From: a virus
Strand: one strand, 5' to 3'
Length of the DNA: 11,862 nucleotides
IMG/VR virus record: IMGVR_UViG_3300041809_003079
The position numbers and the translations under genes were made by a program. Positions 6,532 to 7,471 of this stretch are shown here, one piece after another. Below the pieces are notes generated by a model. The model worked only from the letters and a program-made list of their open reading frames with translations. It did not search any database and was not told where the DNA came from. Position 1 is the first letter of the stretch. Every line of letters starts with the position of its first letter.

Positions 6532-6839
6532 CAGTCCTGTTCCTCGACAAGCTTGTAGCGGCACCCTGACGAGTGCAGCGCGATTGGGACGCTGCTGCCG
6601 TCCTTTTTGAGGTTGAACTCGATCGTGATTGGTTTTGAGATTGCTGCAACGCGGATGGCGTCCTGAAGATCAGGCGAAGGCTTCGCAGGCGCTCCCCACA
6701 TGCCGGTGTGCTGGTGTGTTAGCCACGACACCATGTCGTTGATGACAGCTCCGGTCGGCGATACGCTGCCTTGCGACGTCCATCGCATTGTCGCCTGTTT
6801 TTCTGCCTTCGTGAACGGTCCTACGTCATCGTCCTTCAC
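6531..6839 (-). CDS. Hypothetical protein, 102 aa
   Basis: ATGA overlap with the stop of the 211-aa gene at 6836-6839. Confidence 0.5.
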   Translation of the reverse strand: MKDDDVGPFTKAEKQATMRWTSQGSVSPTGAVINDMVSWLTHQHTGMWGAPAKPSPDLQDAIRVAAISKPITIEFNLKKDGSSVPIALHSSGCRYKLVEEQD

Positions 6840-7471
6840 TTGTTCTTTCCTTTCCTTCGTGCCTTCTTCTCTTCACGTAGCTTGCGGTACGCCTCACGTT
6901 CAGCTTGTACCACGTCCTTGGGACGATTTTTTGCCCCAGGCGGGCGTCCCCTGCCTCTTTTCGGTTCTCCTGGCGCGGGCAGCGGGGTGACCCTCACTTT
7001 TTCGATTGTGAATGGGTTGCCTCTGTTTGGCGCAAGCCGGATGTCGTATGTCGGTGCCTTAAATGATGCGTAGCGTAGCACCCACTTTCCCTCGTCAGCG
7101 TCTTCGTCGAGGAATGATACGACGCCGGTGTCGTCATCGATGCTTTGGACACGTCCGACTAGCGTCTCAAGCCATGGGTTGCCGTCAAGGCATGCGGCAC
7201 GGTGCTCGACCACGATGCGGCTGTTGATGTCAAACAACGGCAGCCTCTCGCCGTTGGCTTCTACGATGCCTGCCGATAGGTGTGAGATGGGAGGTCGCCG
7301 TGCCTGCCACCTCTCAAAGCGAGCAGTGTCAGACAACACCATGTCAGCGACCGTGTCTGCCTCTTCGTCGACAGGCGCGATGTCGACCTCTTTGATCCCT
7401 GAAGCGGGGACCTCTTCATCAACCGCAGCCTCGTCGATAACTTCTGGTTCCGCTGCCTCAGTAGCCATCAT
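6836..7471 (-). CDS. First gene of the leftward operon: 211-aa protein with a highly acidic N-terminus, a central domain, an AT-hook (PKRGRGRPPGAKNRPK) and a Lys/Arg-rich C-terminal tail; putative DNA-binding or architectural regulator
   Basis: The RGRP core flanked by basic residues and Pro or Gly fits an AT-hook. About 14 of the first 48 residues are Asp or Glu. The gene abuts the divergent promoter region. There is no obvious SD, so the mRNA may be leaderless or weakly initiated. Confidence 0.6.
   Translation of the reverse strand: MMATEAAEPEVIDEAAVDEEVPASGIKEVDIAPVDEEADTVADMVLSDTARFERWQARRPPISHLSAGIVEANGERLPLFDINSRIVVEHRAACLDGNPWLETLVGRVQSIDDDTGVVSFLDEDADEGKWVLRYASFKAPTYDIRLAPNRGNPFTIEKVRVTPLPAPGEPKRGRGRPPGAKNRPKDVVQAEREAYRKLREEKKARRKGKNK

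Follow-up and report, generated by a model that had tools for sequence, protein, structure and literature searches.

The stretch of viral DNA analysed here (11,862 nucleotides, called the window below) carries on its minus strand, at positions 6836..7471, an open reading frame that starts with ATG and encodes 211 amino acids plus a stop codon; the ORF list, the sequence and 68 homologues agree on this gene. It comes first in a minus-strand run of closely spaced genes and shares a GTGA with the next ORF, whose GTG start overlaps its TGA stop; on its other side it faces, across a 122-nt gap (7472..7593), a divergent plus-strand gene with a strong AGGAG site. SD-like motifs precede 12 of the window's 26 starts, against a background of 16%, and stop/start overlaps are common; such prokaryote-type gene features oppose an origin of the window in a eukaryotic virus. 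Rfam and tRNA scans found nothing, and megablast of the whole window against phages found no match. At one end of the window, 4.7 kb downstream of the gene and on the same strand, lies a syntenic neighbour that is separate from it, a Major-Vault-Protein-like (MVP-like) gene (3..2135, minus strand) with Pfam matches to MVP_shoulder (E 5e-27) and to Vault repeats, whose frame is cut by the window end. The first-pass annotation of this DNA had described the gene as operon-leading. This description fits the window and two related loci (L009 and L018), where the gene leads a divergent transcription unit, but not L004, L010, L019, L020 and L021, where it lies inside a same-strand run.

The encoded protein is modular, and all of its parts are given here with their minus-strand coordinates. 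Residues 1-44 (7340..7471) form an acidic tail with 15 D/E and one K/R, a net charge of -14, which is predicted to be disordered (pLDDT about 62-71 over residues 1-40 of the AlphaFold model). A net negative folded core of helices, a beta-hairpin and a five-strand SH3-like barrel occupies residues 45-157 (7001..7339), and is joined by a flexible, variable linker (residues 158-170, 6962..7000, pLDDT 60-77) to the type-I AT-hook KRGRGRPPGAKNRPK (residues 171-185, 6917..6961), whose charge, counted by hand from the sequence, is +7, and which is identified by its conservation and a profile alignment. The last 26 residues (186-211, 6839..6916) have a net charge of +6, are rich in Ala, Lys, Arg and Glu, and are predicted to form a basic helix (residues 185-210 of the model, pLDDT 92-96). 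The three peptides quoted in the first-pass annotation for an acidic tail, an RGRP hook and a basic tail are all present in this reading frame, at residues 5-43 (EAAEPEVIDEAAVDEEVPASGIKEVDIAPVDEEADTVAD), 170-185 (PKRGRGRPPGAKNRPK) and 197-211 (KLREEKKARRKGKNK).

The 211-residue protein founds an unnamed and widely conserved family of huge-phage proteins. It has 68 homologues, with E values down to 1e-134, and at E <= 1e-3 the family extends to at least 662 representative clusters at 50% identity. Its members were seen only on metagenomic huge-phage-like contigs of up to 340 kb and 35-65% GC, and the setting of the gene is a huge-phage genome and not a bacterial regulon. Database searches with the protein gave no match in Pfam, PHROGs, NCBIfam or PADLOC, tblastn with the protein and with the family consensus found nothing in 50,697 phage and 72,556 plasmid records, and nothing informative was found in the family's cluster names. 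The gene is one of only three in the window that are conserved in related contigs, where it stands amid small ORFs that turn over fast, and this persistence implies a core function for the huge-phage lineage.

Within the family the hook is the best-conserved part. Seven residues (G175, R176, P177, G179, N182, R183 and K185) are invariant in all 68 aligned homologues, G173 and R174 are conserved at 90% or more, and the resulting G-R-P-x-G-x-x-N-R-x-K is the sole invariant stretch across these close relatives. Its core, R-G-R-P, is flanked by K/R on both sides within residues 171-185, and is followed by the extension G-A-K-N-R, which in the family consensus (KRGRGRPKGSKNRPK) reads G-S-K-N-R; a GSKNK extension on the C-terminal side defines the type-I AT-hook (PMC12430185). 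In profile comparison the family aligns with the DBD2 peptide of HMG-I(Y) in 2ezd, KRPRGRPKGSKNK (RGRPKGSKNK), and also with the ARBP/MeCP2 hook of 1ub1. Pfam AT_hook (PF02178) matched 10 of the 68 members (best E 9.8e-4) and not the query itself, since this model is very short and a single hook rarely scores against it. Farther afield, a type-I-like hook is found in 179 of 201 family representatives, across genomes that span 35-65% GC; it is single in about 80% of members, and in 38 of the 201 representatives it is joined by a second RGRP hook, gained some 20 residues before it. Judged by sequence, these features lie far beyond chance, and the RGRP segment is no chance motif but a genuine, strongly conserved type-I AT-hook of the HMGA/AHL kind.

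For residues 161-180 the AlphaFold model has a pLDDT of about 60, against more than 90 in the barrel and the helix on either side, so that the hook is predicted to sit in an intrinsically unstructured segment outside any folded domain, as would fit a motif that becomes ordered only on DNA. Two doubts that the first-pass annotation had raised about the RGRP segment, that homologues might not conserve it and that it might be part of a folded domain with no role in DNA binding, both fall away, because the hook is strongly conserved (G-R-P in 68 of 68) and lies in a linker that is predicted to be flexible. The acidic region that was also pointed out there accompanies the hook across the family: the N-terminal tail is net negative in 67 of the 68 homologues (median length 42 residues, median net charge -10.5) and the C-terminal tail is net positive in 66, and these charges are conserved while the tail sequences vary. 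The linker ranges from 11 to 35 residues among homologues, and the start of the C-terminal helix is again conserved, as [ED]V[IV]xAE[RK]xA with A190 and E191 at 90% or more. Fifteen representatives that have no hook nevertheless have strongly basic C-termini (net +6 or more over the last 40 residues), and four of these 15 retain an RGRK/GRGRS variant of the hook block. The basic C-termini of such hook-less relatives argue that binding to a polyanion, DNA, is the selected property.

The central 110 or so residues, to which the first-pass annotation had drawn attention, do form a folded domain: the model exceeds a pLDDT of 90 from about residue 45 to residue 155. Two helices (37-57) that bear a conserved RWQARRPxIxHL are followed by the beta-hairpin and the barrel, which ends in a conserved LAPxxGNPF. 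Its closest folds are bL19 and Tudor/Agenet/KOW SH3-like barrels, at 7-13% identity and with Foldseek E values that are all > 1e-3; the best match is bL19, an RNA-binding ribosomal protein (11-13% identity). By sequence the phage protein stands outside the bL19 family, and no rRNA-binding or aromatic-cage signature is evident in it. The core has no sequence relatives among known domains and no Pfam match, and no Pfam family except AT_hook was matched by more than two of the 68 members at E <= 10. A retropepsin-like reading of the 'DTG' in SIDDDTG was rejected, as only D112, D113 and G116 are conserved and the T is not, and the fold matches are SH3-like barrels; SIDDDTG reads as a beta-turn. 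Paralogy of the barrel with the small 'PGD…' ORFs of the window was likewise rejected when all-vs-all BLASTP and jackhmmer came back empty. A weak match between o3194 and o3463 was the sole exception in these comparisons within the window.

If the hook reads A/T-rich DNA, the divergent intergenic region (7472..7593) is no more than a candidate site for it. Its A+T content is 59%, and four of the 36 tracts of six or more A/T letters (W>=6) in the window lie here, among them the longest, AAATAATAATAAA (7474-7486); in the window and related loci such tracts are about 2.5-3x enriched in intergenic DNA. The first-pass annotation had suggested that the protein may target A/T-rich sites such as those beside its own divergent promoter. 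A/T tracts do lie upstream of the family gene in the window, in L006 and in L008 (a locus that is A/T-rich throughout), but there are none within 400 nt upstream in L004, L009, L010 and L001; the upstream tracts are thus not conserved, self-targeting at the divergent promoter is no family property, and autoregulation through such tracts was rejected as a family trait. In relatives of 64-65% GC the W>=6 tracts are very rare altogether (one in 12 kb in L010 and six in 21 kb in L004), and this rarity suggests that the target may be host DNA, or may not be strictly A/T DNA. A 15-mer shared by the regions upstream of the AT-hook and MVP-like genes, AATTCATAGACG[AC]TA, was rejected as a promoter element, as it is not conserved at the corresponding positions of related loci. 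By our estimate, its 14/15 match is near chance for a window of 11.9 kb.

Comparison with known AT-hook proteins shows both how familiar the parts are and how differently they are arranged. The hooks of HMGA1 (hook 2, the peptide of 2ezd) and of plant AHL proteins (RGRPxGSKNKPK) share with the family the R-G-R-P core, the preceding basic residues and the G-S/A-K-N-[KR] extension. HMGA1 and HMGA2 also combine AT-hooks with an oppositely charged acidic tail; however, HMGA proteins are fully disordered chains of about 100 aa with three hooks and a C-terminal acidic tail, whereas the phage protein has a 110-residue folded core (pLDDT above 90), one hook and an N-terminal acidic tail, and its hook directly precedes the conserved helix, which HMGA lacks. 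Plant AHL proteins join the hook to a PPC/DUF296 domain; the phage protein has no PPC/DUF296 match, and its hook is joined instead to a phage-specific SH3-like barrel and followed only by the 26-residue helix. The parts list is shared with Myxococcus xanthus CarD, which combines a Tudor-like protein-binding module, an acidic segment and RGRP hooks (PMC4374960): the phage protein too has a small beta-barrel, an acidic segment and an RGRP hook. The order is permuted, however, with the acidic tail at the N-terminus and the core separating it from the hook, and CarD has four RGRP repeats where the phage protein has one and 38 of 201 relatives two or more; the family is moreover phage-encoded and has no known CarG-like partner. 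None of the 68 members matches CarD_CdnL_TRCF (PF02559), the N-terminal domain with which CarD contacts RNA polymerase, even at E <= 10, and no CarD/CdnL/TRCF structure is among the fold matches listed. The comparison with CarD and HMGA made in the first-pass annotation is therefore reasonable as a functional analogy and does not extend to homology: the likeness is one of function alone, and the phage protein belongs to neither family. By this analogy a CarD-like logic is likely, in which the hook would hold the protein on A/T DNA and the folded module would deal with other proteins.

Lsr2 carries its RGR within a structured two-helix domain and has in addition an N-terminal oligomerisation domain, whereas the phage protein has a canonical RGRP hook in a flexible linker and an acidic N-terminus that is predicted to be disordered. 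We also set NRPKEVIxAE of the family against RGRIPADVIDAY, which we take to be a segment of the Lsr2 sequence, and rejected the resemblance as unsupported, there being no Lsr2 family match. Phage- and prophage-borne proteins of the Lsr2/CgpS type are similar in that they too are small and mobile-element-encoded, and use arginine-glycine-arginine to read A/T minor grooves (PMC8612146, PMC5137423).

On balance we favour, with moderate confidence, the view that the product of the gene is a small, modular, architectural protein that serves to tether DNA in a lineage of uncultivated huge phages, most likely an anchor in the minor groove of A/T DNA joined to a protein-binding barrel and modulated by the acidic tail. 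The disordered type-I hook, KRGRGRPxGxKNRPK, would fit its R-G-R core into short A/T tracts, where the minor groove is narrow, and the G-x-K-N-R-P-K extension and the basic Ala/Lys-rich helix that follows may add backbone contacts. HMGA peptides show that a lone AT-hook binds weakly, and tight binding would call for help from the basic helix, oligomerisation or a partner. Being net acidic, the barrel is itself an unlikely binder of nucleic acid; its ligand is most likely a protein partner, and it would thereby bring the partner to DNA or DNA to the partner. The polyacidic N-terminal tail may fold back electrostatically onto the hook and basic helix, which would lower non-specific DNA affinity and make binding dynamic and competitive, much as in HMGA2, whose hooks are bound electrostatically by its acidic tail (PMC4482583). 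[quoted passage not shown] Because A/T tracts are sparse and concentrated between genes in these mid- to high-GC genomes, a protein of this kind would accumulate at promoter and intergenic DNA. Several observations count against DNA tethering: taken as a whole the protein carries a net charge of about -5, unusual in a DNA binder, the best fold match is an RNA-binding protein, bL19, the A/T tracts near the gene are not conserved, and no neighbouring gene strictly co-varies with it.

The DNA that is bound need not be the phage's own. An early protein that acts on the host nucleoid, instead of organising phage DNA, could displace A/T-binding nucleoid proteins or xenogeneic silencers of the H-NS or Lsr2 type, or could serve as a decoy by way of a DNA-mimicking acidic tail. 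The gene lies in, or heads, long series of ORFs of 60-110 aa such as are typical of the early regions that serve host takeover, its lead of a divergent unit in the window, L009 and L018 points the same way, and the hook is invariant although the density of A/T tracts in the phages' own DNA varies about 100-fold, as would fit a target outside the phage genome; phage-borne Lsr2-type proteins offer a precedent for meddling with A/T-binding nucleoid proteins (PMC8612146). We nevertheless consider such a role in host takeover rather unlikely, as no Lsr2 or H-NS Pfam family is found among the 68 members at E <= 10 and nothing separates host from phage DNA as the target. [quoted passage not shown] In other mobile elements (PM2-like prophages and Ralstonia elements), AT-hook proteins are proposed to act as replication factors (PMC1950889), and a KaiC/RecA-like ATPase of about 260 aa is encoded 2-8 kb upstream in L009, L019, L020 and L021, as is, by our reading of the sequence, a RadA-like ATPase directly upstream in L001; this link is loose, however, and the window has no such ATPase. 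The gene also abuts the divergent A/T-rich gap in the window, where cumulative GC skew has its minimum, but the skew follows the coding strand and shows no consistent pattern along the window, a search of 7472-7593 found no iterons or repeats like those of origins, and the divergent placement is not conserved in the family.

The vault-like neighbour suggests a further role, that of an adaptor whose barrel would attach to the MVP-like shell while its hook and helix grip DNA or RNA, so tying nucleic acid to a phage-built compartment. The order and strand of the two genes in the window are repeated in L006, L008, L013/L026, L018, L019, L021, L022, L023, L024, L029 and L034, with the MVP-like gene at 12 kb in L004/L027 and probably also following the family gene in L020; throughout this one clade the family gene lies 1.5-12 kb upstream, and the arrangement has been kept despite complete turnover of the intervening genes and a GC range of 35-65%. 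In Borg elements, too, putative vault genes adjoin histone genes (bioRxiv 10.1101/2024.11.05.622173). The two genes are never adjacent, however, and each is found without the other nearby: in a more distant MVP clade (38-48% identity), none of the 11 loci whose upstream sequence extends for at least 8 kb has a family member within 10 kb, huge-phage records of 735 kb and 462 kb carry MVP with no family member within 20 kb, the family has no BLAST match anywhere in deposited phage records, and the distant members L001, L009 and L014-L017 have no MVP-like gene in flanks of up to 10 kb. We rejected obligate pairing as a general rule on account of these distant loci and members, which make the linkage look like the inherited synteny of one lineage and not an obligate pair, and the vault adaptor is a very unlikely explanation. 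Least probable of all is an RNA-binding protein, in which the basic hook region would act as an 'extended AT-hook' on structured RNA and the bL19-like barrel would contact RNA as well, be it ribosomal RNA or that of the phage. A preference for RNA has been reported for extended AT-hooks flanked by basic patches; but the core is net acidic, the likeness to bL19 is at the level of fold only (11-13% identity, Foldseek E > 1e-3), only AT_hook among Pfam families is matched by more than two of the 68 members at E <= 10, and in its RGRP core the hook is of the canonical DNA type, with the type-I extension that the DNA-bound HMGA structure also has.

Canonical eukaryote-type AT-hooks are rare in prokaryotes, and we know of no characterised phage protein built around one. 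The surveys of jumbo phages that we found in the literature, including a large comparative one (PMC7824862), do not mention AT-hooks. The present family is large, its type-I AT-hook is invariant, and it is among the very few stable genes of hypervariable huge-phage regions; convergence with myxobacterial CarD and eukaryotic HMGA is likely. As a DNA-tethering protein it offers a compact and testable model, in which a single hook, a basic helix and an acidic tail would make up a regulated DNA anchor. A bolder and highly improbable idea casts the family as a phage 'chromatin adaptor', a physical link between DNA and a compartment or machine built by the phage, with the downstream vault-like MVP shell as its most striking partner; if true, it would parallel the pairing of vault and histone genes in Borgs and give a first functional handle on prokaryotic and viral vault proteins. 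The family offers a marker gene, and a possible entry point to DNA organisation in huge phages, including the unexplained MVP homologues nearby.

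The gene at 6836-7471 on the minus strand of the window (ATG start; ORF list and sequence) encodes a protein of 211 aa that contains all three of the peptides quoted from it in the first-pass annotation. Its residues 1-44 include 15 D/E and one K/R, residues 171-185 read KRGRGRPPGAKNRPK, and the final 26 residues have a net charge of +6. A dense series of minus-strand ORFs lies downstream, with the gene's TGA stop overlapping the GTG start of the next ORF, and upstream there is a 122-nt gap (7472-7593) before a divergently oriented plus-strand gene, which has a strong AGGAG site; because of this gap and the minus-strand run, the gene is operon-leading in the window. 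The features originally described, an acidic tail, an AT-hook and a basic tail encoded at the start of an operon, are thus confirmed. Among the related loci fetched for comparison (L numbers), L009 and L018 share this divergent arrangement with the gene heading its operon, and L004, L010, L019, L020 and L021 do not. SD-like motifs and stop/start overlaps in the window indicate that the host is prokaryotic.

The protein has no match in Pfam, PHROGs, NCBIfam or PADLOC. With a word-indexed protein search we obtained 68 homologues, every one of them metagenomic and either unnamed or "hypothetical", and an exhaustive profile search of representative clusters (50% identity) gave 662 clusters at E <= 1e-3, 314 at E <= 1e-10 and 146 at E <= 1e-30. 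Nearly all members are about 200 aa long and share one common architecture. Deposited phages (50,697 records) and plasmids (72,556 records) yielded no detectable relative, even when the family consensus was the query. Contigs that carry homologues reach 340 kb, are packed with ORFs of 60-110 aa, and also encode a Cpn60-family chaperonin, T4_Y16D, HNH, RNA ligase and a Gad2-family protein; several are viral by IMG/VR classification. The carriers are huge phages, and the protein is a real member of a large, widespread and previously unannotated family.

An AlphaFold2 model computed from the family alignment (mean pLDDT 84) has an acidic N-terminal tail of low confidence (residues 1-36, pLDDT about 62), two helices with a conserved RWQARRPxIxHL (residues 37-57, pLDDT about 70 rising to 90), a beta-hairpin and five-strand barrel (residues 69-146, pLDDT 90-98), a predicted flexible linker that holds the hook (residues about 160-184, pLDDT about 60) and a C-terminal helix (residues 185-210, pLDDT 92-96). 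The tail sequences are not conserved across the family but their charge layout is: the N-tail (median 42 aa, net -10.5) is net negative in 67/68 homologues and the C-tail net positive in 66/68, with a slightly acidic core (median -3) between them.

In the alignment of the 68 sequences the invariant columns are L65, T103, G175, R176, P177, G179, N182, R183 and K185, and G173, R174, A190 and E191 each reach at least 90% conservation; the family consensus for the hook and the start of the C-terminal helix is KRGRGRPKGSKNRPK-EVIKAEKEA. The family profile resembles solved structures hook-to-hook only, namely 2ezd, the DNA-bound second DNA-binding domain of HMG-I(Y) (KRPRGRPKGSKNK), and 1ub1, the ARBP/MeCP2 hook; Pfam AT_hook is matched by 10/68 members (best E 1e-3); and in plant AHL proteins the type-I hook is defined by a G-S-K-N-K extension (PMC12430185). 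From these matches and this extension, the G175-K185 block, with its seven invariant residues, is a type-I AT-hook. Neither of the two findings that the first-pass annotation named as refuting its reading applies, since the motif is conserved in homologues and is not buried in a fold. A type-I-like hook is present in 179 of 201 family representatives. In 38 of the 201 there are at least two [RK]GRP hooks, and the additional one, KRKRGRPRK, sits at the C-terminal rim of the barrel, where RGNPF is otherwise conserved. Fifteen of the 201 have no recognisable hook, and the C-terminal 40 residues of these are strongly basic (net +6 or more); in four of the 15 the block persists in an RGRK/GRGRS version. 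The extended module RRGRPxGSKN[RK]PK also occurs in ORFs whose contigs belong to Anaerobiospirillum and Bryobacterales MAGs (L003 7319-9286 (+), a 656-aa open frame with two copies at its C-terminus, and L002 9434-9793 (+)); these ORFs resemble the family through the hook region alone. Two hook-derived peptide patterns matched at least 600 stretches in IMG/VR, only five of them from the family, and phage and bacterial proteins may carry type-I hooks more often than is usually assumed.

The protein belongs to none of HMGA, CarD/CdnL, Lsr2/H-NS, bL19 and AHL: for each of them a defining feature was sought in it and was not found. The fold of phage Lsr2-like proteins differs from its own (PMC8612146). 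Phage AT-hook proteins have been noted in passing only, in PM2-like and Ralstonia elements (PMC1950889), and AT-hooks are not mentioned in the jumbo-phage papers that a literature search turned up, the comparative survey PMC7824862 among them.

The 7472-7593 gap is 59% A+T (window mean 46%) and holds 4 of the window's 36 A/T runs of at least 6 nt; the longest, AAATAATAATAAA (7474-7486), lies just ahead of the gene's start codon. Such tracts are enriched 2.5-3x between genes in the window, L004, L006 and L009, which supports the view that the protein would bind A/T tracts, mostly intergenic ones. L010 has only one such tract in 12 kb and L008 has 271 in 21 kb, yet the hook is invariant. Tracts upstream of the family gene itself are present only in the window, L006 and A/T-rich L008, a pattern that does not support autoregulation of its own promoter by the protein; the first-pass interpretation as a whole is partly supported. 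A short stem-loop rich in GC, GCTCC-TGT-GGAGC (7558-7570), also lies in the gap, with a start codon on either side, and a scan marks it as terminator-like on the minus strand. A 15-mer, AATTCATAGACG[AC]TA, occurs at 2202-2216 and 7525-7539, upstream of two conserved minus-strand genes, the Major-Vault-Protein (MVP)-like gene and the AT-hook gene. No shuffle gave two matches; we rejected it as a shared motif, since it is not conserved in related loci and a 14/15 pair is, by our estimate, near chance at this window size.

Only 3 of the 26 window ORFs have relatives in related loci: the AT-hook gene, the MVP-like gene and the 100-aa ORF 3463-3765 (-), whose relatives (L008 15128-15355, L013 11903-12169; 31-34% identity) likewise lie between the other two. 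It overlaps ORF 3194-3544, so the listed start of the latter is probably too far upstream. The roughly 23 small ORFs on both strands of 2505-11862 have no relatives in the loci fetched, no above-threshold Pfam or PHROGs match where scanned and no detectable paralogy among one another, and this stretch looks like a hypervariable accessory region between conserved anchor genes. One 149-aa ORF, 5208-5657 (-), has a CxxC…CxxC zinc-ribbon-like segment with weak DZR and HypA matches (E about 0.03-0.04).

With moderate confidence we read the AT-hook protein as an A/T minor-groove DNA-anchoring adaptor; its DNA binding, its partner, the role of its tail and the genome that it targets are all inferences. 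Hook and basic helix would hold the protein to A/T minor grooves, a protein partner would dock on the acidic SH3-like barrel, and the acidic tail would temper DNA binding by intramolecular or intermolecular electrostatic contacts, an HMGA/CarD-like logic assembled from unrelated parts. This proposal has precedents: in CarD a Tudor-like module that binds RNAP beta is found together with an acidic segment and four RGRP hooks, and its hook domain chiefly boosts the activity of the folded module and is reported to be exchangeable for other intrinsically disordered domains with function kept in vivo (PMC4374960), and in HMGA2 the acidic tail binds the protein's own hooks (PMC4482583). The second hooks gained by some members and the basic C-terminal tails of hook-less ones fit selection for binding DNA, a polyanion; RNA binding is a rival reading, as is a role in host-nucleoid takeover or anti-silencing.

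Gene neighborhoods bear on two further rivals, a role as adaptor for an MVP-like assembly and one at the origin or in tethering. The MVP-like gene (3-2135 (-), truncated at the edge of the window; MVP_shoulder match at E 5e-27, with Vault repeats) has a GC of 0.60-0.62 against 0.46-0.55 for most of the remaining window; homologues in related contigs are 66-76% identical, and identity to two "uncultured phage" records, LR756501 (735 kb) and LR756500 (462 kb), is 43%. For phage MVPs we came across a single report, a preprint of 2023 that deals with two gut phages (10.1101/2023.11.10.566534). The family gene precedes the MVP-like gene on the same strand, 1.5-12 kb away, in the window, L006, L008, L013/L026, L018, L019, L021, L022, L023, L024, L029 and L034, also in L004/L027 (at 12 kb) and probably in L020, across loci of 35-65% GC. 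An obligate pair is argued against by the distant MVP clade (38-48% identity), in which 11/11 loci with at least 8 kb of upstream sequence have no family gene within 10 kb, by the 735-kb and 462-kb records, with none within 20 kb of the MVP gene, and by distant family members, whose flanks of up to 10 kb hold no MVP-like gene; in our reading, the linkage is a gene order that one lineage has inherited. A gene for a KaiC/RecA-like P-loop ATPase of about 260 aa (L009 7043-7816, L019 6112-6894, L020 1628-2410, L021 6148-6921) is found repeatedly at 2-8 kb upstream of the family gene, and the ORF directly upstream of the family gene in L001 (just upstream of 9917) looks RadA-like by sequence, without a Pfam match; the ATPase may point to a module for replication or recombination. 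In the related huge-phage contig L006, a Gad2-family (PF26128) gene (16498-17346 (+)) lies about 2 kb beyond the MVP-like gene, near Peptidase_M24, metallophosphatase and Cpn60-family chaperonin genes; Gad2 is an anti-Gabija protein.

In this protein a single invariant type-I hook and a basic helix are joined to an acidic tail and an orphan SH3-like barrel. The combination is a new variation on the known theme of AT-hook architectural proteins; huge phages encode it, and none of the annotation libraries searched contains it. The biochemical principle is already known, and the family offers a clear, testable hypothesis.
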